A stretch of 64,000 nucleotides of DNA from assembly GCA_944388165.1 (NCBI GenBank), contig CALXHS010000027.1, forward strand, positions 7,957 to 71,956. Direction: 5' to 3'. The DNA is from an uncultured Gemmiger sp. (lineage in GTDB: Bacteria; Bacillota; Clostridia; Oscillospirales; Ruminococcaceae). Below the pieces are notes generated by a model, which was not told the DNA's origin, did not search any database, and saw only the letters and a program-made list of their open reading frames with translations. Position numbers and translations under genes: made by a program. Below, one piece after another: positions 30,380 to 54,697 of the stretch (the stretch's first letter is position 1; every line of letters begins with the position of its first letter).

Positions 30380-30416
30380 TTGACAGAAAATCGAAAACAA
30401 GATAATCTGAATTCAG
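30380..30416 (+). promoter_or_regulatory. Promoter of the XRE/ImmA pair with an overlapping 10-bp palindrome
   Basis: TTGACA-17 nt-TAATCT. The perfect palindrome CTGAATTCAG (30407-30416) overlaps the -10/+1 region and is a candidate auto-operator. The track's TTG start at 30380 is the -35 box. Confidence 0.5.
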
Positions 30417-30448
30417 AAATATCACTGCCGCCCAAAGGAGCCGCCGCC

Positions 30449-36169: not shown

Positions 36170-36186
36170 CAAACCGATCAAAACCT

Positions 36187-36221
36187 TCCCCCGGCGGAAA
36201 TCCTCTGCCGGGGGATTTTTG
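36187..36221 (+). terminator. Rho-independent terminator after cls (left boundary of the phage-like cluster)
   Basis: CCCCCGGC-loop-GCCGGGGG followed by ATTTTT. Confidence 0.75.
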
Positions 36222-36253: not shown

Positions 36254-36282
36254 TTGACAACGTATGGTTGTTGCGCTATACT
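36254..36282 (+). promoter_or_regulatory. Near-consensus sigma-A promoter in front of the phage-like cluster
   Basis: TTGACA-17 nt-TATACT, 54 nt upstream of the first gene of the cluster. Confidence 0.6.
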
Positions 36283-36335
36283 GCATTTACAGAAAACAGT
36301 AACGATGCTCAAGGAGAGACAGCAAAGGAGGAGCT

Positions 36336-36788
36336 ATGACCAATCGGGAAAAAATCAAGTGGCTGGAACAATACCGGCATGAGCAGAGCCGTCTGCGGCT
36401 GCTGTGCACCGAACTGGATGCCTTGCGTGCCCAGGGGCGGGAGGTCTGCCGGGTGCGGGAGGACAGCGGAGAGGCGGAAATGCCCCAGTGGCTTGCCAAA
36501 GACCTGGCCCAGGCCCGGCAGGATATGGAAGCCCAGGCCGCCCGGTGCCTGCTGCTGCGCCGCCGCATGGTGAAAGCCATTGCCCGGCTGGAGGACGAGC
36601 GCCAGCGGGAGGTGCTCTGCCGCCGCTTTTTGCAGGGGCAGACCGCCGCGGAAGCCGCCGATGAGATGGGAGTGGTGCCCCGGCGGGTGGAACAGCTGCA
36701 GACCGAAGGGGTGCGCCGTCTTGCCATTGAATTGCAGGAAACCGGAACGGAAAACGCGCAAAAAGCGCGGCTGCGGGGGACGTTATAG
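36336..36788 (+). CDS. Sigma-70 region-4-like / ArpU-type phage late transcription regulator
   Basis: 150 aa. C-terminal HTH ERQREVLCRRFLQGQTAAEAADEMGVVPRRVEQLQTEGVRRLA resembles sigma region 4. Position directly upstream of the terminase genes is typical of phage late regulators. RBS AAAGGAGG. Confidence 0.65.
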   Translation: MTNREKIKWLEQYRHEQSRLRLLCTELDALRAQGREVCRVREDSGEAEMPQWLAKDLAQARQDMEAQAARCLLLRRRMVKAIARLEDERQREVLCRRFLQGQTAAEAADEMGVVPRRVEQLQTEGVRRLAIELQETGTENAQKARLRGTL

Positions 36789-36873
36789 GATTTCGGGGCT
36801 TTTTCGTTTCTTTTTCTTACAGAATACGGTAACGTTTTGTTGAACTTTCGGGGCGTGACGTGGTAGGCTAAGG

Positions 36874-37086
36874 ATGCGGAAAGGGGGATGGACCATGCAG
36901 GAGGATATCACGCCCGACCGGGTGCTGGATGAACTGGCACACATCGCCTTTGCCGACCTGCGGGGCAGCGATCTGCCGGTGAAGGCGGCGGACAAGCTGC
37001 GGGCGCTGGAAATGATCTACCGCTACCTGGGCATGGGGGACGGCGCGGGCAGCGACGAGGGGGTGGTCATCGTGGACGGGGACTGA
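36874..37086 (+). CDS. Terminase small subunit, C-terminal-domain-only (63-70 aa)
   Basis: RVLDELAHIAFADLRG...KAADKLRALEMIYRYLGM matches the C-terminal part of P27/Terminase_2-type TerS. No room for an N-terminal HTH domain, since only 85 nt separate it from the upstream gene. Alternative start ATG 36895 after GGGGGA. Confidence 0.6.
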   Translation: MRKGGWTMQEDITPDRVLDELAHIAFADLRGSDLPVKAADKLRALEMIYRYLGMGDGAGSDEGVVIVDGD

Positions 37087-37125
37087 TCTCCCGCAGGAAA
37101 GGAGGAAAGATTCATCCGAGTACGT

Positions 37126-38358
37126 TTGAAAGATGTGGTCGCCCCGGTGTTCTGGGGCGTTCACTGTGAGGTGCGCCGGGGCGAGGTGCAGGAACTGCTG
37201 ATGAAGGGCGGCCGCGGCTCGGGCAAATCCAGCTATATTTCCCTGGAAATCATCCTGCAGCTGCTGCGCCACCCGGATTGCCACGCCGTGGTGCTGCGCA
37301 AGGTGGGCGGCACCATGCGTTCCAGCGTCTATGCCCAGATCTGCTGGGCCATCGCTGCCCTGGGACTGGCAAGAAAGTTCCGGTGCACCGTCAGCCCCAT
37401 GGAGTGCACCTACCTGCCCACCGGGCAGAAGATCCTTTTCTTCGGCCTGGACGATGCGGGCAAACTCAAGAGCGTGCGGGCGCCTTTCGGGTATATCGGG
37501 CTGGCCTGGTTCGAGGAACTGGACCAGTTTGACGGCCCCGAGGAGGTGCGCAGCGTGGAGCAGAGCGTGTTCCGGGGCGGCGGGTTCAGCCTGGCCTTCA
37601 AGAGCTTCAACCCGCCCGCCATGGGCCGCAGCTGGGTCAACCGCTACGCCCTGGAAACCAAACCGGGGCGGCGGGTGCTCCACTCCACCTACAAGGACCT
37701 GCCGCCCCACTGGCTGGGACCCCGGTTTCTGGCGGACGCCGAACACCTGAAACAGGCCAATCCGGTGGCCTACCGCCACGAATATCTGGGCGAGGTGGTG
37801 GGCAGCGGCGCGGCGGTGTTCGACAACCTGAAGCTGGAACCCATCCCGGAGCAGACCATCGCGGCCTTTGACCGGCTGTACCATGGGGTGGACTGGGGCT
37901 GGTACCCCGACCCCTGGGCCTACAACGCCGTGTCCTACGACCCGGGGCGGCGGGTGCTCTACATCTTTGACGAGCTCACCCGCAACCGCACCCCCAACCG
38001 AGACACCGCCAAACTGCTGCTGGACCGGGGCATCGGCGGGGACGAGGGCGGCTGGCTGACCGCGGATTCCGCCGAACCCAAAAGCTGTGCCGACTACCGG
38101 GCGTTCGGTCTGCCCTGCCGGGCCGCCCGCAAGGGGCCCGGCAGTGTGGAACAGAGCATGAAATGGCTGCAAAGCCTGCATGCCATCGTCATTGACCCCG
38201 CCCGCTGCCCCCACACCGCCGCCGAGTTCGCGGCCTATGAGTACGAGCGGGACCCACGCACAGGCACGGTGCTGCCCGGCTACCCCGATGTGAACAACCA
38301 CCACATCGACGCGGTGCGGTATGCGGTGGAAAGTGTCTGGCGGCGGCGGGGCAGCTGA
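37126..38358 (+). CDS. Terminase large subunit (PBSX-type)
   Basis: 410 aa. Walker A KGGRGSGKSS, Walker B-like GLAWFEELDQF, C-terminal nuclease region NHHIDAVRYA. TTG start; GGAGG lies about 20 nt upstream, so the exact start is uncertain. Confidence 0.88.
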   Translation: MKDVVAPVFWGVHCEVRRGEVQELLMKGGRGSGKSSYISLEIILQLLRHPDCHAVVLRKVGGTMRSSVYAQICWAIAALGLARKFRCTVSPMECTYLPTGQKILFFGLDDAGKLKSVRAPFGYIGLAWFEELDQFDGPEEVRSVEQSVFRGGGFSLAFKSFNPPAMGRSWVNRYALETKPGRRVLHSTYKDLPPHWLGPRFLADAEHLKQANPVAYRHEYLGEVVGSGAAVFDNLKLEPIPEQTIAAFDRLYHGVDWGWYPDPWAYNAVSYDPGRRVLYIFDELTRNRTPNRDTAKLLLDRGIGGDEGGWLTADSAEPKSCADYRAFGLPCRAARKGPGSVEQSMKWLQSLHAIVIDPARCPHTAAEFAAYEYERDPRTGTVLPGYPDVNNHHIDAVRYAVESVWRRRGS

Positions 38359-38375
38359 CAACAAAGGAGGAAGGA

Positions 38376-39722
38376 TTGAAGAGTTTTCTGGAACAGGCCT
38401 TCGGCCGGTCGGACGTCACCGGACCGGCCATGCACGGGGCCATCCGTGAATGGTTCGACCTGTATTTCGGCCGGGCCGCCCCGGGGGAGGACCCCTCCGG
38501 CCGTCTGCCGGTGCTCATTGTGGACAAGCTCTACCGGGCCGTCTTTGCGGAATACGAGACCCGGCTGGAGGGCACCCCCTGGATGCAGGCCAACCTGCGG
38601 GCGCTGAACGCCGTGCGCCGCCGCGCCCTGCAAAGCGCCCTGGTGGGGGGCGAATGTCTGCTCAAGCCGGTGCTGTGCGGCGGCGGGTTTGATTTTGTGC
38701 CGGTGCGCCGGGACTGCTTTGCCCCCCTGGCCCGGGATGCCCACGGCCGGTTGCAGGCGGTGGGCACCATGGAACTGCTGGCCCGGGGACCACGCCGGTA
38801 CGCCTTGCTGGAACGGCGCAGCGCCGGGGCGGATGGGCTGTGCATCGAGACCCGTCTCTTTGAGCTGGCGGGGGAGACCCTGGGGCGGGAAGCCCCCCTC
38901 TCCGCCCTGCCCGAGACCGAGGTCCTGCGCCCCACCCTGCTGCTGCCCGGCGTGCCCGGGGTGGGGCTGGCCACTCTGCGAACCCCGCTGCTCAACTGCG
39001 TGGACGGCGGCCCCGAGGCGGTGGCTGTCTTTGCCCCGGCGGTGGGGCTTATCCACAGCCTGGGGCGCACCGAACACCAGCTGCGCCGGGAATTTGAGAA
39101 CGGCGCCGCCCGGGTGTTTGCTTCGGAGGATCTGCTGGAACAGGATGCCTCCGGCCGCCGTGGTCTGCGGGACGACCTCTTCGTGGGCCTGCCCGACGAC
39201 CCCGCCAACCTGGGGGTGACGGTGTACAGCCCCGCTTTGCGGGAACAGAGTTATCTGGCCCGCAAGCAGGACATTCTGCGGGGGTGCGAGAGCCTGATCG
39301 GGCTGAAACGGGGGCTGCTCAGCGAGGTGGAAGCCACCGAGCGCACCGCCACCGAGGTGACCGCCAGCACCGGGGACTATGACCTGACCATCCGGGATTT
39401 TCAGGCCATGTGGGAGGAGGCTCTGCGGGAAGCCCTTTCCTTGTGTGACGCCCTGGGCCGGGCCTACGGCCTGTGCAGCGGCGCGCCCTTTGACCCGGAC
39501 ACCGCCCTGTCCCTGGACTGGGGAGACGGGGTGCTGTATGACCGTACCCGCACCTGGAACGAGTACCTGGACATGGTGGACGGCGGCCTTCTGCGCCCCG
39601 AACTGGCCCTGGCCTGGTATTTCGGGCTCCCCCACGAGACCGAGGCCGATCTGGCCGCGGTACGTGAGCGGTATATGCCTGGCGAAAAGGAGGTGAAAAC
39701 GGATGGAACCCAAGCAGAATGA
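38376..39722 (+). CDS. Phage portal protein
   Basis: 448 aa, directly after TerL. TTG start 5 nt after AAAGGAGGAAGG. Size and position are typical of an SPP1-like portal. Family not verified by search. Confidence 0.75.
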   Translation: MKSFLEQAFGRSDVTGPAMHGAIREWFDLYFGRAAPGEDPSGRLPVLIVDKLYRAVFAEYETRLEGTPWMQANLRALNAVRRRALQSALVGGECLLKPVLCGGGFDFVPVRRDCFAPLARDAHGRLQAVGTMELLARGPRRYALLERRSAGADGLCIETRLFELAGETLGREAPLSALPETEVLRPTLLLPGVPGVGLATLRTPLLNCVDGGPEAVAVFAPAVGLIHSLGRTEHQLRREFENGAARVFASEDLLEQDASGRRGLRDDLFVGLPDDPANLGVTVYSPALREQSYLARKQDILRGCESLIGLKRGLLSEVEATERTATEVTASTGDYDLTIRDFQAMWEEALREALSLCDALGRAYGLCSGAPFDPDTALSLDWGDGVLYDRTRTWNEYLDMVDGGLLRPELALAWYFGLPHETEADLAAVRERYMPGEKEVKTDGTQAE

Positions 39723-39870
39723 ACCCACGGCCCCCGCGCCCTACGCGGCGGGCACCGGCACGGCGGCTATGCTCCCCGGCAGAGAAGCCCTGGACCGCAT
39801 GAACTACCGGGAGCGCCTGGCCCTGAAGCACAGCGATCCCGCCACCTACGAACAGCTGCGCCGCGGCTGA
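39703..39870 (+). CDS. 55-aa protein between portal and capsid genes (possible minimal scaffold remnant)
   Basis: Not in the track (under 60 aa). ATG 39703 lies 7 nt after AAGGAGGTG. MEPKQNEPTAPAPYAAGTGTAAMLPGREALDRMNYRERLALKHSDPATYEQLRRG. Overlaps the portal 3' end by 20 nt. Confidence 0.55.
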   Translation: MEPKQNEPTAPAPYAAGTGTAAMLPGREALDRMNYRERLALKHSDPATYEQLRRG

Positions 39871-39898
39871 ACCAACCACATCTGAAAGGAGAAAACAC

Positions 39899-40756
39899 AT
39901 GGCAGATATGACCACCAAACTGGCGGACCTCATCGACCCCGAAGTCATGGGCGACATGGTGAGCGCCCGCATTCCCAAGAAGCTGCGCGTTGCCCCCTTT
40001 GCCAAGGTGGACGACACCCTGGTGGGCGTGCCCGGCGATACCATCACCGTGCCCGCCTACGGCTACATCGGCGACGCCGCCGACGTGGCCGAGGGCGCTG
40101 AAGTGGCCATTGAAAAGATGACCACCTCCACCCGCAAGGCCACCGTGAAAAAGGCCATGAAGGGCATCAGCCTCACCGACGAGGCGGTGCTCTCCGGCTA
40201 CGGCAACCCCGTGGGCGAAGCCAACACCCAGCTGGCCCTGTCCATCGCCGCCAAGATCGACAACGACTGCATGGATGCCCTGCAGGGTGCCAGCCTGACT
40301 TACGACGGCAGCAGCGGCACCATCAGCTATGCAGGCATCGTGGACGCGCTGGACCTGTTCGAGGAGGAACAGGGCAGCGACAAGGTCATCTTCGTCCACC
40401 CCAAGCAGGTCACCCAGCTGCGCAAGGACCCGGATTTCCTCTCCGCCGACAAGTACCAGGCCGGCGTCGTGGTCTCCGGCGAGATCGGCATGGTGGCCGG
40501 CTGCCGGGTGGTGCCTTCCAAGAAGGTGCCCCTGGTGGATGAGGACGCCAACTACTCCTGCCCCATCGTCCGCCTGGAAAGCGACCCCGAGACCGAGGAC
40601 GAGATCCCGGCCCTGACCATCTACCGCAAGCGTGAGGTCAATGTGGAGGCGGAACGCAAGCCCAAGATCCGTACCACCGAGATCACTGCCGACGAATTCT
40701 ATGTGGCGGTGCTGTCCAACGAAGCCAAGGTGGTGCTGGCCAAGTTCAAGGTGTGA
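39899..40756 (+). CDS. Major capsid protein (N4-gp56-like family)
   Basis: 285 aa. MADMTTKLADLIDPEVMGDMVSARIPKKLRVAPFAKVDDTLVGVPGDTITVPAYGYIGDAADVAEG...LTDEAVLSGYGNPVGEANTQLALSIAAKIDND closely follows the pattern I recall for this capsid family. RBS AAAGGAGAA. Confidence 0.85.
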   Translation: MADMTTKLADLIDPEVMGDMVSARIPKKLRVAPFAKVDDTLVGVPGDTITVPAYGYIGDAADVAEGAEVAIEKMTTSTRKATVKKAMKGISLTDEAVLSGYGNPVGEANTQLALSIAAKIDNDCMDALQGASLTYDGSSGTISYAGIVDALDLFEEEQGSDKVIFVHPKQVTQLRKDPDFLSADKYQAGVVVSGEIGMVAGCRVVPSKKVPLVDEDANYSCPIVRLESDPETEDEIPALTIYRKREVNVEAERKPKIRTTEITADEFYVAVLSNEAKVVLAKFKV

Positions 40757-41136
40757 GAGGGGGCGTCGCCTTGCCGGACTACGCTTTTTATACCGATGCC
40801 TACCTGGGGGAGGACATCCCCGAAGCCGACTTCCCCCGGTACGCCAAGCGGGCCGCCGCCAAGCTGGCCCACTATAACCAGGTGTTCCGGGTGACGCCCC
40901 GGGAGGGCATCCCCGACGCCGAGGACAACGCCCTGTGCGCCATCGCCGACGCCATGTATGAGTTCGACGCCGAGGACAGCCGCCGGGGTCTGGCTTCCGC
41001 CAGTGTGGGCTCGGTGACCGAGACCTACACCGCCCCGGCGGAACTGTCCGCCACTACCCTCTATCTGCGGGAAGCCTATTTCCGCCAGGTGGCCGGGGAC
41101 TTCCTTCTCATGCGGCGGGGGGTGCGCCATGGGTAA
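40753..41136 (+). CDS. Head-tail connector/adaptor protein
   Basis: 127 aa (GTG overlapping the MCP stop; alternative TTG 40771 after GAGAGGGGG). Position and size are typical of a gp6-like adaptor. Confidence 0.55.
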   Translation: MRGGVALPDYAFYTDAYLGEDIPEADFPRYAKRAAAKLAHYNQVFRVTPREGIPDAEDNALCAIADAMYEFDAEDSRRGLASASVGSVTETYTAPAELSATTLYLREAYFRQVAGDFLLMRRGVRHG

Positions 41137-41545
41137 GGAACTGGCCTTTCCCCTCTGCGCCCAGACGGTCACCCTCTACCACCCCGACCCGGACAGCGAG
41201 ACTGTCACCCGCACCCTGGTGGCGGGGGTGTTTCTGGACCGGCGGGTGAAGATGAATTTCACCGAGACAGGCTGCCAGGCCGCCCAGGCTTTTCTGCTGG
41301 TGATTCCCGCCGCGGCGGGGGAGCCCGGGGATGCCTATACTCTGGAACCGGGGGACCGGGTGTTTGAAGGCAGCGGGCCGGAACTTTCCTGGCAGGAATG
41401 GCCGGAATTTCTGCCCGCTTTGCGGGAGGGCATCTGCTGCGTGCAGTACGTGGACCCCAAGAAGGTGCGGGGACGGTTCAGCCACCTGGAAGCGGGCGGC
41501 TGGTGGACCCGGTCCGGCAGCGGGGCTCACAGCCTGACCAACTGA
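41129..41545 (+). CDS. Phage head-closure / structural protein
   Basis: 138-aa ORF overlapping the previous gene by 8 nt. Call rests on position only. Confidence 0.5.
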   Translation: MGKELAFPLCAQTVTLYHPDPDSETVTRTLVAGVFLDRRVKMNFTETGCQAAQAFLLVIPAAAGEPGDAYTLEPGDRVFEGSGPELSWQEWPEFLPALREGICCVQYVDPKKVRGRFSHLEAGGWWTRSGSGAHSLTN

Positions 41546-41556
41546 GGAGGGAAACC

Positions 41557-41991
41557 ATGGAGGAATACCAGCTCAAGACCCTGTGCGACTGGCTGCGCAC
41601 CGCCCCCGCCCTGGCCGGGGTGAAAAAACTGTGGGTGGACGGCGCCCCGGCGGTGCCGGGCACGGCAGGGCTCTTCCCGGCGGGGGTCCAGGTGACCCAG
41701 CGCCGGGTGAACCTGCTGGGGGAAGTGCGGGAAAAATGCCGGGCTTCCTTCACCCTGCGGCTGGTGCTGCCCTACGGCGGCAGCCGTGCCCGGGAAAATG
41801 CCGCCCTGCTGCTGGAACTGCAGCGCTGGGTTCTGGAAGAAAGCGCCGGGGGACGGGCGCCGGTGTTCGGCAACGCCGACACCCAACAGGAACGCCTGAC
41901 CGCCGCCGACGCCAAGCTGGAAAAGACCGGCGACGAGGGCACCGCCGTCTACGCTGTGCAGCTGAAAGCCGAATACACCATCCAGTACTGA
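41557..41991 (+). CDS. Phage tail-completion / neck protein
   Basis: Start ATG 41557 after GAGGAGGG. 144 aa. Call rests on position. Confidence 0.5.
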   Translation: MEEYQLKTLCDWLRTAPALAGVKKLWVDGAPAVPGTAGLFPAGVQVTQRRVNLLGEVREKCRASFTLRLVLPYGGSRARENAALLLELQRWVLEESAGGRAPVFGNADTQQERLTAADAKLEKTGDEGTAVYAVQLKAEYTIQY

Positions 41992-42007
41992 AAGGAGAGA
42001 GAACGGT

Positions 42008-42493
42008 TTGAAGATCGAACGCAAATACATGGCCCACTACCTGAACGCGGCTTTCTCGGAAGAAGAGAGCGAGTATTGCCGCCTGGGCGCCGACCTGGAG
42101 GAATATTCCCCGGAACTCAGCGCCAATGTGGAAAAAAAGACCAACATCCTGGGTCAGACCTCGGTGGTCATCGACAGCTACCAGAAGCAGGGTGAGGTTT
42201 CCCCTTACTACGCCGAGAAGGACGATCCCCTGTTCGCCAAGCTGCAGGCCATCATCGACGGCGACCTGGTGCTGGATCAGCTCAAGACCGACATGGTGGA
42301 GGTCAAGCTGTGGGGCGACGAGGGCGACGGCGCCTACCCCGCCGTGAAGGAGGAAGTGTATGTGGAGATCGTCAGCTACGGCGGCGACACCACCGGCTAC
42401 CAGATCCCCTTCAACGTCCACTATACCGGCGTGAAGACCGCCGGTACCTTCAATGTGAGCACCAAGACCTTCACCCCCACCCCGGCGGCGTAA
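42008..42493 (+). CDS. Major tail protein (siphovirus tube)
   Basis: 161 aa. Position before the chaperone/tape-measure genes. MAHYLNAAFSEEESEYCRLGADLEEYSPELSANVEKKTNILGQTS resembles TP901-1/phi13-type tube proteins. TTG start after AAAGGAGAGAG. Confidence 0.7.
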   Translation: MKIERKYMAHYLNAAFSEEESEYCRLGADLEEYSPELSANVEKKTNILGQTSVVIDSYQKQGEVSPYYAEKDDPLFAKLQAIIDGDLVLDQLKTDMVEVKLWGDEGDGAYPAVKEEVYVEIVSYGGDTTGYQIPFNVHYTGVKTAGTFNVSTKTFTPTPAA

Positions 42494-42541
42494 AGTCCCC
42501 GGGGCGGGCGGGTGGGAAACACAAAGGAGCGTGATTTTTCG

Positions 42542-42994
42542 ATGCACAAACTGCTGGTGGATACCGGTGTGGAGGAATTCGAGGTCAACGGGCGGGGCGT
42601 GCTGCGCGTCAACCCCGGGGACCCCAACATCTACCACCGTTTTTTCGCCGCCCGGGAGGAACTGACTGCCCTGGACGAGGAACTGGTCCGGCGCAGCGCC
42701 GAACTGCCCGGCGGGGGCCAGGGGGGCGAATCCCTGGACCTGCTGGCGGAGTATGACCGCCGGGTGAAGGAACTGCTGAACCGGGTGTTCGGTGCGCCCA
42801 ACGATTTTGATGTGATTCTGGACGGAGTGAACCTGGCGGGGGTGGGGGTCAACGGCCGCCGCGTGGTGGAAAACCTGCTGGACGCCCTGGCCCCCGTACT
42901 GCAGGAAGGCGCCCGGCGCACGGTGCAGGCCACCGCCGCTGACGCTGTGGCCGCGGCGGAGGCCGCCCGCGCCGCCCGGGGCGAAGAGGCATGA
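42542..42994 (+). CDS. Tail assembly chaperone
   Basis: Start ATG 42542 after AAAGGAG. 150 aa, acidic. Lies between the tube and tape-measure genes. Confidence 0.6.
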   Translation: MHKLLVDTGVEEFEVNGRGVLRVNPGDPNIYHRFFAAREELTALDEELVRRSAELPGGGQGGESLDLLAEYDRRVKELLNRVFGAPNDFDVILDGVNLAGVGVNGRRVVENLLDALAPVLQEGARRTVQATAADAVAAAEAARAARGEEA

Positions 42995-43563: not shown

Positions 43564-43578
43564 GAGAGGGGGAACGAT

Positions 43579-45405
43579 TTGGCAAGAACCATTGTATTTG
43601 ATGAGACCATGGACGGGATGCAGCAGCGGGTGGGCACCCTGCAGGACAGCCTGCAGGGGCTGGACGCCGCCCTGCGCACCGCCGAGACCGGCGCCCGCCG
43701 TGCCGCTGCCACCACCCAGGGATTGCGGGCGGCCTTTGTGCACGCAGCGGCCCCGCTGACCGACACCCTGAACCCGGCTCTGACCGAACTGAACAGCCTG
43801 ACCGGGGCCCTGGGCGGCCGCAGCGGCGCCGTCAAAGCCGCCGCCGGTCTGGACCAGGTGGAACAGGCGGCATCCTCGGCGGTCAAAAGCACCGCCAAAG
43901 CGGTGCGCACCCTGGCGGGCTTTGACGAGATCATCCGCCTGGGGGCGGCTTCGTCCTCGTCCAAAAAGAGCGGCTCCGGGTCCTCCGGCAGCAAGAAGGA
44001 CAGCGGCAAGGAGACGGAACAGGCGGTGAGCAGCGCCCGCGGCGTGCTGGATACCCTGAAAGGGGCACTGGATGCCTTCTGGGCTTATCTGCGGTCCTAT
44101 TACGCCCCGGCGATCCTTTCCTGGAGCGCCGCCTGGAACCGCATGAGGGAAGCTGCCCTGGCCGCCTGGGGGCCGGTGAGCGAAGCCGCCCGGGAACTGT
44201 GGCAAGGCACCCTGGTGCCCCTGGGCAATTACTTGCTTACCGAATTCCTGCCCGGGCTGGTGAACAGCTTTTCCCTGGCTTTGTGGCCGGTGGTGGGCGG
44301 TCTGGGGGCTGCCGCCGTCACTGCCCTGGGCAACGCCTTCGTGTGGCTGGCTGATGTGGCGGGCCAGGCGGTGGACGGGGTCATCCGCCCGGCGCTGGAA
44401 AGCGTCCAGACCGTCTGGTACGCCATGATGCAGGCGGTCTACAACGCCTGGCAGGCCTACGGCCAGCCCATCTATGCGGGCATCATCGCGGCGGCGGACA
44501 ACCTGTGCGGCGTTCTGAACAACCTGTGGACCGGGACTCTGCTGCCCATCCTGCAGGGGGTTCTGCAGCAGGTGAGCGCCCTGTGGCAGGAGTGTCTGGT
44601 GCCCCTGTTCGCCGACTTTACCATGTATCTGGGCTCCGCGGCCACCTTGCTGCTGAACCTGTGGAACGAAGTGCTGGCCCCGCTGCTCCAATGGCTGACG
44701 GCGGCGTTCGGCCCGGTGGTCACCCAGGTGTGCCTGGCCATCAGCGGCGCGGTGACCACCGCCGTGGGGGTGATCGCAGGGCTGATGAGCACCTTGCTCA
44801 CCGCCATGCAGGGGATGGCGGATTTCCTGTCCGACGTGCTGTGCGGCCGCTGGGAGGATGCCTGGAACGGCATGGCCGACACCGCCGCCCGGGTGTGGGA
44901 GCGCATCACCGGCACCATCCAGACGGCCATTTCCGGGCTGCAGGAGCTGGTGGGCGGGTTTGTTTCCGGCATTGTGGAGGCCGCCCAGACCGCCCTGAAC
45001 GCCCTGGGACAGCTGGGCGGAACCGCGGTCAGCGGGAAGGTTCCTTCCTCCTACTATGGGCAGAGCCGAACCTTCAGCGTCATGCCCTCGCTGCCCCAGG
45101 GGGCGCTGCAGGTGCCCGCCCTGGCACGGGGTGCGGTCATTCCGCCCAACCGGGAATTCCTGGCGGTGCTGGGCGACCAGAAACACGGTAGCAATGTGGA
45201 AGCCCCCCTGGCCACCATCCAGCAGGCGGTGGCGGAGACCATGCAGGATATGGCCGAAGGCGAACAGGCCGCCTTGAACCAGGTCAGCGCATTGCTGCGG
45301 GAGATCCTGGGGGCGGTGTACGGCATCCGGGTGGGGGACGAGGTCATCGGCCGGGCCGCCCAGCGCTACCAGACCCGGCAGTCCGTGATCACGGGAGGTT
45401 ACTGA
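43579..45405 (+). CDS. Tail tape measure protein
   Basis: 608 aa. Ala/Leu/Gly-rich helical sequence with hydrophobic central segments. Canonical position. TTG start after GAGAGGGGGAA. Confidence 0.8.
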   Translation: MARTIVFDETMDGMQQRVGTLQDSLQGLDAALRTAETGARRAAATTQGLRAAFVHAAAPLTDTLNPALTELNSLTGALGGRSGAVKAAAGLDQVEQAASSAVKSTAKAVRTLAGFDEIIRLGAASSSSKKSGSGSSGSKKDSGKETEQAVSSARGVLDTLKGALDAFWAYLRSYYAPAILSWSAAWNRMREAALAAWGPVSEAARELWQGTLVPLGNYLLTEFLPGLVNSFSLALWPVVGGLGAAAVTALGNAFVWLADVAGQAVDGVIRPALESVQTVWYAMMQAVYNAWQAYGQPIYAGIIAAADNLCGVLNNLWTGTLLPILQGVLQQVSALWQECLVPLFADFTMYLGSAATLLLNLWNEVLAPLLQWLTAAFGPVVTQVCLAISGAVTTAVGVIAGLMSTLLTAMQGMADFLSDVLCGRWEDAWNGMADTAARVWERITGTIQTAISGLQELVGGFVSGIVEAAQTALNALGQLGGTAVSGKVPSSYYGQSRTFSVMPSLPQGALQVPALARGAVIPPNREFLAVLGDQKHGSNVEAPLATIQQAVAETMQDMAEGEQAALNQVSALLREILGAVYGIRVGDEVIGRAAQRYQTRQSVITGGY

Positions 45406-45406
45406 T

Positions 45407-45781
45407 ATGCGCAGCAAAGTGGATTTTTATCAGGTGGACGGCCTGCCCATGCCTGCCCCCGACGCCGAACCGGAATTCAGCTTTTCCGACCTGGACGCCA
45501 GCGATTCCGGCCGGGATGAGAGCGGCGTCATGCACCGAATCCTGGTGCGGGAAAAGGTGGGGACCTGGAGTTTTACCTATTCCCACCTCACCGACGAAGA
45601 ACTGGCCTATCTGCGGGGGCTGTTTGCGGGCAAGGCCCAGTTCAGCTTTACCCACCCGGTATTTGGGGCCAGCGGCGCCACCGAGACCTGTACCGCCTAC
45701 ATGAGCCAGTACAGCGCCGTGTGGAAAAGCCAGCGCACCGGGCTGTGGCGGAATTTCAATTTCAAGATCATTCAGTGCTGA
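45407..45781 (+). CDS. Small distal-tail-like protein
   Basis: 124 aa, directly after the tape measure (1-nt gap). RBS GGGAGG. Call rests on position. Confidence 0.5.
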   Translation: MRSKVDFYQVDGLPMPAPDAEPEFSFSDLDASDSGRDESGVMHRILVREKVGTWSFTYSHLTDEELAYLRGLFAGKAQFSFTHPVFGASGATETCTAYMSQYSAVWKSQRTGLWRNFNFKIIQC

Positions 45782-45791
45782 GGAGGGGACC

Positions 45792-48587
45792 ATGCTGAAA
45801 CACAAGCTGCTGCTGGCGGACGGCACTGTCCTGACCAGCGGCGAAAGCACCGGCAGCGCCATCCGCAGCGTGACCCTGACCGAACAGGTCAACAGCGGGG
45901 ATGACCTGTGCCCCGGGGCGGCCTGCGCCGCCTGTGCCGAGATCGAACTGTGGGTGCCGGAAAACAGCCTGCCCATCGCCCAGGGGGAAACGCTGACCCT
46001 GGTGCGGGTGGATACCGCCGCCGGGACCGAGACCCCCGCCGGTGTCTTTCTGGCGGAAAAGCCCACCCGGACCAGCGCCAACGTCTGCACCATCACCGCC
46101 TATGACCGGATGACCCTGTTTGACCGGGACATGACCCAATGGCTGGAAGAAAAACAGGGGGATTTTCCACTGACACTGGCCCGTTTTGTGGAAAACCTCT
46201 GCGCTGCCTGCGGGGTAATGCCGGAACCGGGCACCCTGGATAGTCTGCCCAACGGCGGGTATGAGATCCGCCCCTTTACAGCGGACAGCATCACCGGGCG
46301 GCAGCTGCTGCAGTGGGCGGCCCAGGCGGCGGGTCGGTTTGCCCGCATGACGCCTTCGGGCAATCTGGAACTGGCCTGGTATCCGACGGAAGGCGGCATG
46401 CCGATGGTGGCTGCCCCGCAGGAAGGCATTGTCCCGGCGGGGGTGCGGCTTTCCGGTTCAGTGCTGCGCACGGCGGCAGGGCAGGTGTGGCGCATTACCC
46501 AAAAGACCGGGTATTACCTGCAGGACTCGCTGCGGTATGAGGATTACGACACCGCACCGGTGGACAAGGTGCAGCTCAAGCAGAGCGAGGCCGATGTGGG
46601 GGTGATCTGGCCCCCGGAGGAAACGGGGGACAACGCCCTGGTCATCAGCGGCAACCTGCTGTTGACCACCGACAGCGCCGCCCGTCTGGAACCGGTGGCC
46701 CAAACCCTGTTTGAGCAGATTTCCCGGGAAAGCTACACTCCCTTGCAGCTGACCCTGCCGTTTGACGAAGCCATCCGCCCAGGGACCCGCCTGGATGTGG
46801 TGGACCCCTATGGGCAGGTCCGTCACACCCTGGTGATGAAACGGACGGTGAGCGGCCAGACCATGCAGCTGGAAAGCACCGGCCATGCCCGGCGGGATTC
46901 TACCCTTGCGGTGAACCGGCAGTCCTACAAGGATCTGCAAGGCAAGGTGATGGAGATGCAGACCACCGTGGACGGCCTTTCCATCAACGTACAGCAGGAT
47001 TTCCCGGGCAACCGGCTGGAAAGCGTCAACTGGCGCAGCGGGCATTCCGGCAGCACGGCAGGGGGCAGCGTCGTCCTCAACGGCCGCCACGCCGTTTTGC
47101 AGGGGGACGGCACCGGCAGCTGCGGTGCGGTGGTGGAGATCCCGGATGAATTTCTGGACCTGATGCCCGGGGCGGACCTGGACTTTACGGTGCAGTACCG
47201 GGTCACAGCCCCCATCACCATTCTGGACCCGGAGGTGCTGGGAGCCTACATCCGGGCCTTTGCGGATTATGAGGAGGACGGCAGCCAGAAATACGTCTGG
47301 GCAGAACTGGTACGGATCGCGGATGGGGAAAATCCGGCAGCGGAATGCGGCTGGACCACGGTTTCCGCCCGGATGCGCGTACCCTCGGTGCCACTGAAGC
47401 GCATCTACCTGTTTGCCAACATCCAGTCGGGCACCGGCACCCTGGAGGTGGAGGAACCCGGGGCACAGATCACCTCCGCCAAAATCACCGCCCTGCGCCT
47501 GAGCGCCGGGGCGGCGGAACTGTCCAGCGCCCGCATCGCCCTCACCGGCATGGTGGAGTTTAACGACCTGGAAGAAAGCGGCCGCACCGTCATCAACGGC
47601 GGCAACATCACCACCGGCACCGTGCGCAGCAGCAACGGCGCTTTGACCATCGACCTGGACAACGCCGCCCTGGTAGCGGGCAATAATGCCGATCTGCGGG
47701 CGGGTTCGGCCACCAGTTACACCAAGTTCCTGTGGAACGGCTTCAACAGCTATACCGACGGGGAACTGCGTTCCGGCATCGAAAATAACTGGACCTGGTT
47801 CAACCGCACCCTGACGGCTCTGTTCTCCACCTCCGGCCTGACCGGCGTGGGGTACAAGAACGCCGCCGGACAGCTGCAGATGGGATATACCTATGACCCC
47901 TATTCCGACATTCAGAGCGGGTTCGTAAATTATCTGAATGGCGCCACGTATTGTGCGGGTACCAGCAAGGCTATTATTCAACGAGCCAGCTCTGAGCTGT
48001 ATCTGGAAAACAATGTGGGCGGCAGCAATGACTCGTTCCTCATCGCACAGGGGGACGCTACCCGTCTTTACGGAACGGGGTTTTACGTGCAGGGGGATAT
48101 TTCTTGCGGAGGAGCCAAGAACCGGATCGTGGGAACCAACTTTTACGGAAAGCGCGCTCTCAATGCAATGGAAAGCCCGACACCCTTGTTTTGCGACAGC
48201 GGCAGCGGCCGTCTGGACGATACCGGCCTCTGCATGCTGACCATCCATCCGATACTGGAAGAATGCCTGGACCCTTATGCCCGGCCGCAGTGGCTGGTCT
48301 CCGGGGCGGCACCGGGCTTCTGGGTGGAAAAGAAGGACAGGGCAGTGCTGGTCCACGGCCCGGCCGGAGCGGATTTTGACTGGATCCTGCTGGCGCCGCA
48401 GCGGGGATATGCCGACTGTTATGCCGATCCTGTACCCGACTTGCCGTATATCCCCGATGGTGAGGGGAACGCGGAGCTGGACATGGTGGCAGAGCTGTCT
48501 GTCCGCCGCACCCGGGAATTGGATGGCCTGACCGACGCAGTGGCAGCTGAATGGGCACAACTGGAAGAAATGGAGGAATCTGCATGA
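45792..48587 (+). CDS. Large tail tip / host-specificity protein
   Basis: 931 aa. Position after the tape measure and distal-tail genes. RBS GAGGAGGGG. Confidence 0.65.
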   Translation: MLKHKLLLADGTVLTSGESTGSAIRSVTLTEQVNSGDDLCPGAACAACAEIELWVPENSLPIAQGETLTLVRVDTAAGTETPAGVFLAEKPTRTSANVCTITAYDRMTLFDRDMTQWLEEKQGDFPLTLARFVENLCAACGVMPEPGTLDSLPNGGYEIRPFTADSITGRQLLQWAAQAAGRFARMTPSGNLELAWYPTEGGMPMVAAPQEGIVPAGVRLSGSVLRTAAGQVWRITQKTGYYLQDSLRYEDYDTAPVDKVQLKQSEADVGVIWPPEETGDNALVISGNLLLTTDSAARLEPVAQTLFEQISRESYTPLQLTLPFDEAIRPGTRLDVVDPYGQVRHTLVMKRTVSGQTMQLESTGHARRDSTLAVNRQSYKDLQGKVMEMQTTVDGLSINVQQDFPGNRLESVNWRSGHSGSTAGGSVVLNGRHAVLQGDGTGSCGAVVEIPDEFLDLMPGADLDFTVQYRVTAPITILDPEVLGAYIRAFADYEEDGSQKYVWAELVRIADGENPAAECGWTTVSARMRVPSVPLKRIYLFANIQSGTGTLEVEEPGAQITSAKITALRLSAGAAELSSARIALTGMVEFNDLEESGRTVINGGNITTGTVRSSNGALTIDLDNAALVAGNNADLRAGSATSYTKFLWNGFNSYTDGELRSGIENNWTWFNRTLTALFSTSGLTGVGYKNAAGQLQMGYTYDPYSDIQSGFVNYLNGATYCAGTSKAIIQRASSELYLENNVGGSNDSFLIAQGDATRLYGTGFYVQGDISCGGAKNRIVGTNFYGKRALNAMESPTPLFCDSGSGRLDDTGLCMLTIHPILEECLDPYARPQWLVSGAAPGFWVEKKDRAVLVHGPAGADFDWILLAPQRGYADCYADPVPDLPYIPDGEGNAELDMVAELSVRRTRELDGLTDAVAAEWAQLEEMEESA

Positions 48588-48784
48588 AGAAACTGACGGC
48601 ATTTACCGTGCACACCACCGCCGAAGGCAAACGCTGTGCCTATATGTACAGCGTCATCGACGCCGACGGCAACATCACCGAGAGCAACCGCCGCGCCAAC
48701 TGCGTGCTGCTGGACGAGACCGCCCTGGCGGCGGTGGCGCAGCTGGAAGGCTTTCTGGCCGACCGCCTGGCAGCGGAAGAATAA
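48584..48784 (+). CDS. Small phage protein (66 aa)
   Basis: ATGA overlap with the preceding stop. RBS GGAGGAA. MKKLTAFTVHTTAEGKRCAYMYSVIDADGNITESN... Confidence 0.5.
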   Translation: MKKLTAFTVHTTAEGKRCAYMYSVIDADGNITESNRRANCVLLDETALAAVAQLEGFLADRLAAEE

Positions 48785-48805
48785 CGGCCGGGAAAGGAGC
48801 GGAGC

Positions 48806-49666
48806 ATGGCAGAAACGCAGACCTATTACGACAGCACCCTTACCGGTGAAGAACTGGATGCGGCCCTGAAAAAGCTGCCCCAGGTGGACCAGGCTGTGGA
48901 ACAGTCGGCCCAAAACGCTCTGCTGGCCAAAAGCTGGGCGGAAGGCGGCACCGACCTGCGGGCGGATGAGGAGATCCACAACGCCAGATACTGGTGTTCC
49001 CAGGCCCAGACCATCACCCAGGGGGCCCTGGGCTGGTACGCGGACGCAAACCAGCTGCGGGCGGCCTGTCCCCAGGGCAGCAACGGTCAGTGGGCTATTG
49101 TAGGCACCACCGATACCATCTGGACCTGGGACAGCGATACCGCTGCCTGGGTGGATACCGGGGCACAGATCGACCTGTCCAACTATTACACCAAGCCCCA
49201 GGCTGAAGCACGGTTCCAGATGCCGGTGGGATATATCTTCGACTGGGCACCGGTGGAAGGGCAGGACATTGATTTGTCCACGCCGGAAAAGGTGGCGGCA
49301 CACTTCGGTTACGGTATCTGGAAGGAACTGAACGGGGTGTTTACCTTTGCCCGCGATGAGAACCATGAGGCAGGCAGTGTCGGCGGCGAGGAGACCCATG
49401 CGCTGACTGTGGAAGAACTGGCGGCTCACGGGCATACGGGAATGGAGCACCAGGCAGGCAAGTTTATGACATTCTCCGGCTCGGCTGGAGAATACAGCAA
49501 TGTTTCCCGGGTGAACGTGCAAGGGGCAGAAAAGGGAACCGGCACAGCTACATGGCAATGGGTCAGTATGCGCTGGACAGATACGATCGAGAATACCGGC
49601 GCCGACCAGCCTCATAACAACATGCCGCCTTATCTGGCGGTATACAAATGGCAGCGCATTGCCTGA
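48806..49666 (+). CDS. Tail fibre protein with C-terminal phage tail-collar (MdpB-like) domain
   Basis: C-terminal motifs GGEETHALTVEELAAHGH and QPHNNMPPYLAVYKWQR are characteristic of the tail-collar domain. Confidence 0.75.
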   Translation: MAETQTYYDSTLTGEELDAALKKLPQVDQAVEQSAQNALLAKSWAEGGTDLRADEEIHNARYWCSQAQTITQGALGWYADANQLRAACPQGSNGQWAIVGTTDTIWTWDSDTAAWVDTGAQIDLSNYYTKPQAEARFQMPVGYIFDWAPVEGQDIDLSTPEKVAAHFGYGIWKELNGVFTFARDENHEAGSVGGEETHALTVEELAAHGHTGMEHQAGKFMTFSGSAGEYSNVSRVNVQGAEKGTGTATWQWVSMRWTDTIENTGADQPHNNMPPYLAVYKWQRIA

Positions 49667-49678
49667 GGAGGAAACAAT

Positions 49679-50341
49679 ATGAGATTGCAGAACGGAGAGG
49701 TACTTCTGTGTTGGCCGCTGGCGCTGCATGTGCTTACGGCGGGGTACTTTTACAGCGACGGCAGCCGGCACGAAGCCATCGACCTGCGTACCAACCAGGG
49801 AGGCAGCGTCGTCAAGCCGGTATATGCGGCGGAGGACGGCACCGTGGACTGGACCCAGGAATGGGACGGCCATACCAAGACGGGCATGCAGAGCTACGGC
49901 ACGGCGCTGCTGCTTCGCCACCAGGAATATGGGGGCGTGGCCCTGCAGACCCGCTACGCGCATCTCTCCCGGTTGTGTGTGGCCAAGGGCGATGCCGTGA
50001 AAGAAGGCCAGCTCATTGGTTATACCGGGGAAACAGGGAACGTGTCCGGCGCGCACCTGCATTTTGAGGTGCTGCTGGGCGGTACCCGCCGCAACCCGCT
50101 GGTATGGCTGGATGATGACTTCACCACCGCCAACAGCGGCGTCTATACCTACCAGCCCGGGGAATGCGCTGTGGTGCGCCCGGCGGAAGAACTGCCGGAC
50201 GGAGATGCCCGCCTGCAGACCATTACCATCGGCCCTGTGAGCCAGGGGGACGCTGATGCCATCCTGGCCCTGTGCAAAGAGCGGGAACTGGACAAGCTGG
50301 GGCTGTACCGCTCGGCCTGGGCGGATGAGACTGCGGGGTGA
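49679..50341 (+). CDS. M23-family metallopeptidase (probable endolysin)
   Basis: HxxxD (SRHEAIDL) and HxH (GAHLHFEV) zinc motifs. 220 aa with an extra C-terminal domain. RBS GAGGAGGAA. Confidence 0.8.
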   Translation: MRLQNGEVLLCWPLALHVLTAGYFYSDGSRHEAIDLRTNQGGSVVKPVYAAEDGTVDWTQEWDGHTKTGMQSYGTALLLRHQEYGGVALQTRYAHLSRLCVAKGDAVKEGQLIGYTGETGNVSGAHLHFEVLLGGTRRNPLVWLDDDFTTANSGVYTYQPGECAVVRPAEELPDGDARLQTITIGPVSQGDADAILALCKERELDKLGLYRSAWADETAG

Positions 50342-50658
50342 TGGCGGTGGAAACATGGCCGGAGATCCTGACGGCGGTGCTGCCGCTGCTTACGGCCTTC
50401 TGCGGCTGGGCGGCTGCCCGGCTGACCCGCAGCCGCAAGGAGGAAAAGGCTTTGCGGGACGGGGTCAAAGGGCTGCTGCGGGCCAAGGTCATCGACCTGG
50501 GGCTGCACTACATTGATGAACAGGCGGTGCCGCCCTATGGGGTGGAGACCTTGCGCAGCTGCTACGACCCGTATATGGACCTGGGGGACGGTGATCCTTC
50601 GGTGACCCATATCATGAAAAAATGCGAAAGCCTGCCGGTGCGTTCCGGCAGCGATTGA
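50341..50658 (+). CDS. Membrane-anchored phage protein (N-terminal TM; lysis accessory?)
   Basis: ATG 50341 overlaps the M23 stop (TGATG). N-terminal helix WPEILTAVLPLLTAFCGWAAA. 105 aa. Confidence 0.5.
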   Translation: MAVETWPEILTAVLPLLTAFCGWAAARLTRSRKEEKALRDGVKGLLRAKVIDLGLHYIDEQAVPPYGVETLRSCYDPYMDLGDGDPSVTHIMKKCESLPVRSGSD

Positions 50659-50671
50659 AAGGAAAACGTAC

Positions 50672-50860
50672 ATGGAAGAATTCTGGCAGAATCTGGCGGC
50701 CCTGCTCAAGGTGAAAACCATTGTGACCCTGGTGGTCATCGCGGTGTTTGCGGTGCTGGCCCTTACGGGACAGTTGCAGCCGGATACCGTTATGACCATT
50801 GTCACCATGGTGGTGGCGTTCTATTTTGGTACCCAGAACGGCCGGCAGAGGAAGGTGTGA
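50672..50860 (+). CDS. Holin-like small membrane protein
   Basis: 62 aa with two hydrophobic helices and a charged C-terminus (QNGRQRKV). Last gene before the terminator. Confidence 0.6.
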   Translation: MEEFWQNLAALLKVKTIVTLVVIAVFAVLALTGQLQPDTVMTIVTMVVAFYFGTQNGRQRKV

Positions 50861-50861
50861 G

Positions 50862-50897
50862 AAAAGCGGAGAGCCCGGACGGGCTCTCCGCTTTTGG
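50862..50897 (+). terminator. Rho-independent terminator (right boundary of the phage-like cluster)
   Basis: AAAGCGGAGAGCCC-ggac-GGGCTCTCCGCTTT followed by TGG. Confidence 0.7.
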
Positions 50898-51373: not shown

Positions 51374-51420
51374 GGTAAGGTCATGTCTCAAAGGGAATGC
51401 AGGTAGGAAAAGCTATGTAG

Positions 51421-53115: not shown

Positions 53116-53166
53116 GAAAACCTCCTGGTTAAAGTTCGTATGTAACGTGTGTAAAAGGCAGAAAAA

Positions 53167-54693: not shown

Positions 54694-54697
54694 GCAA

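Follow-up and report, generated by a model that had tools for sequence, protein, structure and literature searches.

A candidate gene-transfer-agent-like head-tail-lysis locus conserved beside host genes across Gemmiger

The 64,000-nucleotide stretch of an uncultured Gemmiger sp. analysed here (contig CALXHS010000027.1 of assembly GCA_944388165.1, positions 7,957 to 71,956, hereafter the window) carries a 14.6-kb cluster of phage-type head, tail and lysis genes at positions 36254-50897, which very probably constitutes a domesticated and functional particle-producing locus. Known here from its genes, it appears to be of the type of either the gene transfer agents (GTAs) or the defective particle PBSX. 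The preliminary description of this DNA had proposed a domesticated particle locus rather than a decaying prophage, and our analysis supports that proposal: two observations that could have told against it, close relatives embedded in complete 35-45-kb prophages and orthologues that decay or evolve neutrally, were sought and both came out in its favour. GTAs and PBSX-type elements are already known, and GTA-type DNA packaging in Gemmiger has been published (PMC12946183). What is new is the locus itself, its fixation throughout the genus, a siphovirus-type architecture unlike that of the GTA of the sister genus Faecalibacterium (FpGTA), paired truncations of the small terminase subunit (TerS) and of the head scaffold, and a set of modular variants.

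Results

A fixed and intact locus under purifying selection

Distribution was assessed by an alignment scan with the major capsid protein (MCP) over one genome per GTDB species, which returned 80 loci, followed by tblastn of all window proteins; L-numbers below denote related loci from the genome, IMG/VR and metagenome scans. The cluster is present in 43 species-level Gemmiger/Subdoligranulum genomes, including that of G. formicilis ATCC 27749 (L048), where it occupies about 139.9-153.3 kb of NZ_FUYF01000006.1 and encodes a tape measure of ~503 amino acids. An orthologue of cls, the cardiolipin synthase gene, lies directly upstream in 25 of the 38 species that have at least 1.4 kb of readable upstream sequence, and in the more distant species this cls is only 60-67% identical to that of the window. 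The other upstream neighbours are also host genes (RF3/YitT/AAA, AI-2E transporters, NfeD/Band-7, Rce1-like, PfkB, MFS), the RF3/YitT/AAA neighbours being the genes found at 2.8-10 kb in this window, and Ca. G. stercoravium (L012) has both flanks in common with the window. The exact large terminase subunit (TerL) recurs on five metagenome contigs in the same cls-flanked layout, and the names given to MCP homologues include 'uncultured Gemmiger sp.' (98%) and 'Subdoligranulum sp.' (82%).

Close relatives (MCP identity 74-99%) comprise 43 species genomes, 40 IMG/VR contigs and about 40 metagenome contigs. None places the cluster within a 35-45-kb prophage; all have the short cluster in host context, mostly beside cls. 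Loci of phage type, with a full scaffold and a minor head protein, were found only among distant relatives (MCP at most 71%, TerL 65-68%), some of them on contigs of about 40 kb, and a metagenome scan by TerL alignment gave the same picture as the MCP scan. The ~40-kb metagenome contigs (TerL 65-68%, MCP 61-68%) were judged solely by their longer TerL-to-MCP spacing, 4.8-6.2 kb versus 2.8 kb in the window cluster. The 40 short 'viral' contigs of IMG/VR (L086-L125, MCP at least 80%) are pieces of the chromosomal locus, several of them with host cls attached.

Sequence divergence follows that of the host. Across 22 loci the protein identity of the element genes tracks that of cls (for the portal, r = 0.97 and rho = 0.80), and synonymous divergence (dS) in the cluster is about 0.2-0.6, compared with 0.4-0.5 for the host genes cls and DegT. 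Ratios of nonsynonymous to synonymous divergence (dN/dS), estimated by the Nei-Gojobori method for the window against five close species, range from 0.02 to 0.46 across all 20 cluster genes, including those encoding proteins of only 55 and 63 amino acids (aa). Wherever a contig spans them, the core open reading frames (ORFs) are complete, and what looked like stops were the natural ones at alignment ends. Decay or neutral evolution of the orthologues is thus not what we find; they are intact, under purifying selection and host-like in dS. The record as a whole (43 species, cls synteny in 25 of 38, low dN/dS) fits the vertical inheritance under purifying selection expected of a GTA.

Conservation varies along the cluster. 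Across the genus the head genes share 81-86% identity, and the presumed tail tube is 76-97% identical between species, while the tail-tip and fibre region is the most variable between species and is replaced by unrelated genes in the distant ones. In the tail-tip, fibre and M23 peptidase genes (45792-50341, compared with L008-L010) dS rises to 0.7-0.97, about twice the value for head genes (0.25-0.45); the elevated dS and the gene replacement at this receptor-binding end indicate recombination or diversifying exchange.

Mobility genes were sought by several routes. The claim that the cluster and its surroundings hold no integrase, recombinase, repressor or replication genes held up in Pfam scans of 40 window ORFs, and a six-frame recombinase scan of the window with hidden Markov models (HMMs) and phmmer, using TP901-1, Javan226 and Montmirail integrase queries, gave no match. 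There is no integrase, primase/replicase or AlpA-like gene in or beside the window cluster, no Xre-type repressor adjoining it (the gene directly upstream is cls), no tRNA at the locus and no repeat resembling phage attachment (att) sites; a repeat search likewise confirmed the reported lack of direct repeats in the flanks. For the related loci, a Pfam scan of 148 flank-ORF representatives displays the 25 commonest families, through which single integrases could escape, and it was replaced by the phmmer/HMM scan. In that search of Gemmiger-type loci the sole neighbour recovered was a large serine recombinase (Resolvase, Recombinase, Zn ribbon and DUF4368 domains) at L034 1984-4190, directly upstream of the cluster in one Gemmiger metagenome-assembled genome (MAG). 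Homology between L034 and its sister locus L022 begins about 120 bp upstream of the promoter, and the recombinase probably belongs to an unrelated mobile element that entered the adjoining site. By the Pfam, PHROG and recombinase scans together, the cluster fits the GTA pattern of structural genes without replication, integration or lysogeny genes.

Gene content and layout

Gene identities were assigned by scanning ORF translations against PHROGs, Pfam and NCBIfam profiles (Table 1). The 20 co-directional genes reported earlier, running from promoter to terminator, were borne out: they occupy 36336-50860 on the plus strand, and both the promoter and the terminal hairpin were located. Profile searches of all 20 ORFs, which the preliminary description had put forward as a check, returned phage head, tail and lysis families in the order it had given, from regulator and TerS through to lysin and holin. 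No contractile-tail sheath family appeared among the PHROG or Pfam matches of the cluster genes, and an Rfam scan detected no riboswitch or other RNA family.

Table 1. Features of the particle locus and its left host neighbour, with window coordinates, supporting matches and dN/dS where listed for individual genes
Feature	Position	Strand	Evidence	dN/dS
cls (cardiolipin synthase) and terminator, left host flank	34619-36215	+	PLDc_2 and PLDc domains; cls gene 34619-36169	
P_reg (promoter of reg)	36254-36303	+	-35 TTGACA 36254-36259; -10 TATACT 36277-36282	
Reg, 150 aa	36336-36788	+	Sigma70_r4 (Pfam) 2e-8; phrog_36 transcriptional regulator 1.9e-8	
Candidate late promoter	36817-36869	+	box, -35 and -10 upstream of terS	
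TerS, 63 aa from 36895 (70 aa from 36874)	36895-37086	+	weak phrog_51 and Terminase_2 matches, C-terminal part	
TerL, 410 aa, PBSX/Terminase_3 family	37126-38358	+	Terminase_3 5.4e-37; Terminase_3C 2.1e-12; phrog_3717 1.1e-48	0.12-0.19
Portal, 448 aa	38376-39722	+	phrog_533 2.4e-51; NCBIfam A118-type portal below cut-off	0.11-0.20
Putative mini-scaffold, 55 aa	39703-39870	+	no family match; aligns to scaffold C-terminal tails	0.06-0.19
MCP, 285 aa, TP901-1 / 'N4-gp56' family	39899-40756	+	phrog_544 3.3e-83; Phage_capsid_4; TIGR04387 5e-55	0.02-0.06
Head-tail adaptor	40753/40771-41136	+	phrog_541 5e-13	
phrog_3366 protein (connector)	41129-41545	+	phrog_3366 1.4e-6	
Tail-completion protein (connector)	41557-41991	+	phrog_3266 8.5e-7	
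Presumed tail tube, 161 aa	42008-42493	+	phrog_3099 4.8e-48 (function-less family); role from position only	0.04-0.07
Tail-assembly chaperone-like gene 1	42512/42542-42994	+	phrog_11299	
Tail-assembly chaperone-like gene 2	42991-43563	+	Phage_Gp15 (Pfam) 5e-9; phrog_706 1e-25	
Tape measure, 608 aa	43579-45405	+	phrog_1535 3.9e-32 and many other tape-measure families	0.31-0.46
Distal tail protein, 124 aa	45407-45781	+	phrog_1194	
Tail-tip protein, 931 aa	45792-48587	+	phrog_18190/6616	
Distal tail protein, 66 aa	48584-48784	+	phrog_18444	
Fibre with Gp10_C domain	48806-49666	+	tail-fibre PHROGs; Gp10_C (Pfam) 2e-7	
M23 peptidase (lysin)	49679-50341	+	Peptidase_M23 5e-21	
Membrane protein of lysis block, 106 aa	50338-50658	+	phrog_4105 3e-20	
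Holin-like protein, 62 aa	50672-50860	+	phrog_13256 3.9e-16	
Intrinsic terminator-like hairpin	50862-50897	+	seen directly in the sequence	

Among the head proteins, the MCP shares 42% identity with the major head protein of TP901-1 and matches Gp6 of PDB 9m66 at 1.4e-55. TerL retains an invariant Walker A motif (GGRGSGKS), WFEELD and the nuclease acidic residues across 19 species, and is named 'PBSX family phage terminase large subunit [Gemmiger sp.]' by NCBI. It is 49% identical to its counterpart in Montmirail, a Blautia phage that encodes an integrase and an excisionase along with a minor head protein and a scaffold. For the presumed tube, a PDB sequence search gave no match.

Several details of the gene calls were adjusted. 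Of the junctions described as translationally coupled, those at 42991, 48584 and 50338 are real ATGA/GTGA overlaps, while the one at 40753 needs an alternative GTG start, the gene callers placing the head-tail adaptor start at 40771. The ORF 41583-42011 was rejected as an Arg/Gly/Pro-rich product of the wrong frame; the true gene there is the tail-completion gene. The terminal hairpin is unlisted by the terminator scanner because its T-run holds just four T.

Truncation of the small terminase and the scaffold

The most likely start of TerS is the ATG at 36895, because the promoter-like site before it ends at 36869. A profile built from 15 TerS orthologues aligns to residues 59-110 of a 123-aa TerS (L131, L142) and to residues 88-179 of a TerS of about 185 aa (L130, L132); these longer proteins match the full Pfam Terminase_2 family at 2e-23 and 2e-40, and the motif KLRALE..YK.LG is common to the window-type TerS and the long TerS of the phage relatives. 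Searched against PDB, the TerS profile gave no match even at E = 10, and the assignment is therefore based on its alignment to the Pfam-confirmed Terminase_2 proteins of the phage relatives; pairwise comparisons with XP41-N3 and Montmirail gave weak scores only. The window TerS is thus of the Terminase_2 type but without the N-terminal helix-turn-helix (HTH) DNA-binding half, for which there is no room: the gap between reg and the earliest potential start of terS is only 85 bp. By this alignment it fits the GTA pattern of a small terminase lacking a sequence-specific DNA-binding domain.

A parallel shortening is seen in the head module. In four relatives (L047, L084, L051, L046) a protein of 189-193 aa is encoded directly upstream of MCP, and in the two that were scanned, L047 and L084, it belongs to phrog_194, head scaffolding (2e-22 and 7e-41). 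The 55-aa ORF of the window aligns end to end with residues ~144-191 of these scaffolds, with the motif ...M(G/N)Y.ERL.LK...P..YE.L in common. In L084 a 484-aa minor head protein (phrog_581) precedes the scaffold; it is absent from the window cluster. The 55-aa ORF is the C-terminal remnant of a head scaffold of about 190 aa, and a TerS without its DNA-binding domain and a cut scaffold are both derived changes in the style of GTAs.

Phage relatives retain the longer forms. L084, L051, Montmirail and L130/L132 have a minor head protein (or an ORF of about 490-580 aa in its place) and a 190-210-aa scaffold, full-length Terminase_2 TerS occurs in L131/L142, L130/L132 and Montmirail, and integrases are present in Montmirail and TP901-1.

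Promoters and putative regulation

The best sigma-70-type match of the region, at 11 of 12 positions, is P_reg (TTGACA-17-TATACT, 36254-36282), which lies downstream of the cls terminator (36187-36215). Overlapping its -35 element and spacer is a dyad, ACAACGTATGGTTGT (36257-36271), and a second dyad-like box, TTACAGAAAACAGTAAC, follows the -10 element at 36287-36303. The arrangement TTGACA-17-TAnnnT lies upstream of reg in all 37 other species, including those in which Reg is only ~30% identical, and the dyad ACAAC-N5-GTTGT is exact in 33 of 38 promoters with the window counted, and one exact copy of it occurs in the 64-kb window. The conserved sigma-A-type promoter with its dyad suggests a trans-acting regulator. 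A compensatory change at the sixth dyad position was considered, but the counts (C:G 16, T:G 11, T:A 4) are such that covariation is not claimed; a LexA (Cheo) box was rejected as the identity of the dyad, as its established half-site and spacing differ.

Before terS lies a second, weak promoter-like site (TTGAAC-18-TAGGCT) composed of the box TTACAGAATACGGTAAC at 36817-36833, a -35 element at 36840-36845 and a -10 element at 36864-36869. The 17-nt box TTACAG-N6-GTAAC has exactly two copies in the 64 kb, one at P_reg and one here, versus 0.15 expected by chance, and this site may function as a late promoter. Reg, whose sole recognised domain is a sigma-70 region-4 HTH, was found in 37 related loci at 29-84% identity. 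It is matched by NCBIfam sigma-70 models over region 4 only and below the cut-off; it is presumed to be an activator of the late operon.

Some other species groups differ in this leader. In eight loci (L048, L049, L031, L016, L018, L025, L022, L030), phased ATTTC repeats spaced ~10-11 bp apart occur upstream of the late promoter. The same eight carry a terminator-like hairpin with a T-run before terS or portal, a feature absent from the window's species group that hints at antitermination control in those species.

Variant loci

The locus is not uniform across species. In ten (L016, L018, L019, L023-L026, L029, L044, L045) reg is followed directly by portal, with terS-terL cleanly absent, and elsewhere orphan terS-terL pairs stand alone among host genes such as a histidine kinase and BlaR/BlaI-like genes (L168 5680-7233, L181 5775-7233, L248 7788-9245). 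The pairs of L168 and L181 carry the late-promoter motif of ATTTC repeats, TTGCAT and the ACAAC-N5-GTTGT dyad (GTAGT in L181), and this shared motif, together with the loci lacking terS-terL, suggests a split but co-regulated system.

A short variant at the same cls site (L039-L043, L114-L125, L170-L179) runs reg-terS-terL-portal-55aa-MCP-connectors-tube-M23-holin and lacks the chaperones, tape measure, tail tip and fibre; it includes Ca. Cibiobacter/Gemmiger qucibialis (L040). The large ORFs after its holin were considered as phage genes and rejected: the 663-aa ORF there encodes methionyl-tRNA synthetase, which puts the end of the element at the holin. In two further species (L020 4075-8351, L035 3442-8398) the distal-tail and lysis block is relocated between terL and portal, and the promoter dyad lies downstream of the -10 element instead of in the spacer. 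The portal and 55-aa genes are both missing from one MAG, in which terL and MCP are only 375 bp apart (L013 9626-10001), and in another locus TerL is split into two frames (L039 7253-8384); these two cases represent either single-lineage decay or assembly errors.

Flanking sequence and base composition

Domain scans confirmed that the flanks are host envelope genes, with cls on the left, followed outward by an ABC-2 transporter and DegT, and a glycan locus on the right comprising a carrier protein, a thiamine pyrophosphate (TPP) enzyme and glycan genes. The remainder of the window is housekeeping in character (RF3, an HtrA-like protease, MatE, Amt-PII, CorA). The impression of uniform base composition holds only roughly: GC content is 0.62-0.68 in the cluster and 0.58-0.62 in the left flank but 0.44-0.55 in the right glycan island, and GC at third codon positions (GC3) of the cluster genes, 0.70-0.88, is near host-gene values. 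The glycan genes at 51400-55000 (TPP enzyme, Polysacc_synt flippase, pyruvyl transferase), with GC 0.44-0.48 and GC3 ~0.5 against ~0.62 and ~0.85 elsewhere, look like a recently acquired surface-polysaccharide island adjoining the particle locus. A Cro/C1-type HTH protein of 145 aa is encoded at 30380-30817, 5.5 kb upstream of the cluster, within a host block that is kept in the closest species (86-99% identical).

Discussion

The gene content and conservation of this locus allow a working account of how it may operate. A housekeeping-type consensus promoter with an operator-like dyad would drive reg, and Reg would in turn activate the weak late promoter before terS in a two-step cascade. We propose that, because TerS has lost its DNA-recognition domain, DNA is loaded non-specifically: TerS and the PBSX-family TerL would package whatever DNA is present, namely the chromosome, by a headful mechanism. 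The heads would be of TP901-1 type, and with a 55-aa capsid-binding scaffold tail and no minor head protein they may be smaller than those of a T=7 ancestor. Scaling by volume from a T=7 head holding ~40 kb gives ~8-11 kb for a T=3 shell. Such a head would fit fragments of 8.8-8.9 kb, and a locus of 14.6 kb would therefore be unable to package itself whole. Connectors, tube, chaperones, tape measure, tip and fibre would build a non-contractile tail, through which DNA could reach recipient cells, and the M23 lysin and holin would lyse the producer to release the particles.

Published work on stool supplies a phenomenon in need of such a machine. By sequencing intact capsid-packaged stool DNA, Borodovich et al. 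(Nat Commun 2026, PMC12946183) found GTA-type packaging to be the commonest mode, mainly in Ruminococcaceae and Oscillospiraceae; in both Faecalibacterium and Gemmiger the packaged DNA measured 8.4-8.9 kb (Table S1 of that study: G. formicilis 8929 bp, G. qucibialis 8759 bp, Gemmiger sp. 8832 bp). They named a packaging locus for Faecalibacterium only: FpGTA, a podovirus-like system of operon I (10.5 kb) and operon II (5.5 kb) with a Prp-like protein and a tail nozzle, for whose head they propose T=3 (PMC12946183). FpGTA homologues were stated to be absent from Gemmiger/Subdoligranulum on the basis of MMseqs2 clustering, with ATCC 27749 among the genomes examined (PMC12946183), and our literature searches found no description of a Gemmiger packaging locus. 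The cluster described here is present in both ATCC 27749 and G. qucibialis (L040), and its head genes, at 81-86% identity genus-wide, fit the uniform fragment size. It is the best candidate for the machinery that packs random Gemmiger DNA of ~9 kb into stool virus-like particles, and we consider the complete GTA-like account, responsibility for the published packaging included, to be reasonably probable.

FpGTA, distinguished here from the window cluster by its published description and NCBI names, belongs to a sister genus in Ruminococcaceae and likewise has a head-packaging operon without replication or lysogeny genes, a TerS without an evident DNA-binding domain, a capsid protein named 'N4-gp56 family' by NCBI and reported fragments of 8.4-8.9 kb (PMC12946183). 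It differs in being podovirus-like with a tail nozzle where the window has a tube, chaperones and a tape measure; in encoding a Prp-like protein between portal and MCP where the window has only the 55-aa scaffold remnant; in a TerL named 'Terminase-like family protein' rather than PBSX family; and in its division into two operons ~125 kb apart rather than one. A search for Prp with a weak motif gave no match, and the MCP genome scan returned no true Faecalibacterium locus.

RcGTA of Alphaproteobacteria resembles the locus as a ~15-kb head-tail cluster, vertically inherited under purifying selection, with a TerS lacking a DNA-binding domain, a head too small for its own genes and accessory genes that may lie at other loci. 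Its ancestry, however, is unrelated, with an HK97-like capsid and protease, and its regulators CtrA and GafA and its lysis genes lie outside the cluster, whereas the presumed activator and the lysis genes of the window are inside the operon. TP901-1/P335 siphophages and gut phages of about 40 kb have a homologous structural module, but unlike temperate prophages the window has no integrase or recombinase, repressor/Cro switch, replication module or att repeats in our scans. PBSX of Bacillus subtilis is a Gram-positive, chromosomally fixed head-tail-lysis element with the same TerL family, and its small heads package 13 kb of host DNA; it has a contractile tail, ~28 kb of genes and an Xre repressor with SOS control, whereas the window lacks both a sheath gene and an adjacent Xre-type repressor. 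For the scaffold, an analogy is offered by CpmB of the staphylococcal island SaPI1. This protein of ~70 aa has a C-terminus resembling that of the scaffold of the helper phage; it binds the capsid protein and leads to small capsids. The 55-aa ORF is likewise a scaffold C-terminus alone; unlike CpmB, a satellite product acting beside a full scaffold, it is the sole scaffold-like gene of its cluster.

Several observations weigh against interpreting the locus as a domesticated GTA-like particle. Those relatives of the capsid protein that have been solved or characterised form large heads (the TP901-1 genome is 37.7 kb, and PDB 9m66 lists 7 chains), so the small head is deduced from the scaffold truncation alone, and PBSX particles show that DNA can be carried without being transferred. 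The regulator is encoded within the cluster itself, and the link to the published packaging is drawn at the level of the genus only. The terS-terL pair is missing from the locus in ten species and the whole chaperone-to-fibre segment in five; the portal is absent from one MAG, and TerL is split in another. Given this non-uniformity, some lineages may be split, re-purposed or decaying. No cls lies upstream in 13 of 38 species, and at L034 a large serine recombinase sits next door.

The main rival is a PBSX-like killer particle, a tailed structure with host DNA inside that would act as a bacteriocin against related strains and deliver no DNA. Such a particle would account for a TerL of the PBSX family, for lysis genes within the cluster and for a tip and fibre that are the most variable and swapped parts, with dS about twice that of the head genes, as arms-race targeting predicts; the same caveat has been voiced for FpGTA (PMC12946183). 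We nevertheless regard it as unlikely, since the head, portal and terminase are the most strongly conserved components, which is hard to explain if the tail alone matters, sheath and contractile-tail genes are absent from the PHROG/Pfam matches, and fibre diversification is equally expected of a GTA that recognises its recipients.

Far less probable is a functionless cryptic prophage remnant that has simply not decayed yet. The phage derivation of the cluster, the disappearance of its lysogeny and replication modules and the further losses of terS-terL, tail genes, portal or an intact TerL in some lineages would suit a remnant, but one would hardly be kept in 43 species whose cls proteins have diverged to as little as 60% identity to the window's, with intact ORFs, dN/dS of 0.02-0.46 in all 20 genes and a conserved promoter and operator-like dyad. 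We give still less credence to a phage satellite, for instance a capsid-forming phage-inducible chromosomal island (PICI), or to a mobile temperate phage with integration and replication genes beyond the limits of the window. A size of 7-15 kb is within the satellite range, the head-only short variant resembles capsid-forming PICIs, which borrow helper tails, and one locus has its adjacent serine recombinase; yet the window cluster and the other Gemmiger-type loci alike showed no integrase, AlpA-like or primase/replicase gene within or adjoining them, the position beside cls is fixed with host-like dS and no att repeats, and the window version has a complete tail of its own. Taken together, fixation, intact ORFs, dN/dS and the negative recombinase search lead us to dismiss a mobile prophage as well as a neutral remnant. 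A domesticated particle locus is the reading that we retain.

On the same evidence we tentatively advance a broader view, to which we assign slightly less than an even chance: that the locus is the missing 'Gemmiger GTA', a genus-wide siphovirus-type GTA of Gram-positive gut commensals, domesticated separately from the podovirus-like FpGTA and working through truncation of TerS and scaffold and through movable, co-regulated modules. Loss of the TerS domain would yield non-specific packaging, a CpmB-like peptide of 55 aa would set a head of ~8.9 kb, and the terminase and tail modules could relocate while remaining co-regulated by a shared promoter and operator.

The human gut counts Gemmiger and its relatives among its most abundant bacteria. 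Since G. formicilis ATCC 27749, a type strain available in culture, carries the locus, a concrete and conserved candidate now makes the packaging question testable. IMG/VR lists pieces of this chromosomal locus as viral, and its fragments can therefore be expected to inflate 'prophage' and 'virus' counts in gut viromics. If the GTA-like account is true, a long-tailed Gram-positive GTA lineage would join a very short list, and truncation of the scaffold together with loss of the TerS DNA-binding domain would provide a simple hypothetical route from a T=7 phage head module to a small capsid in the service of its host.

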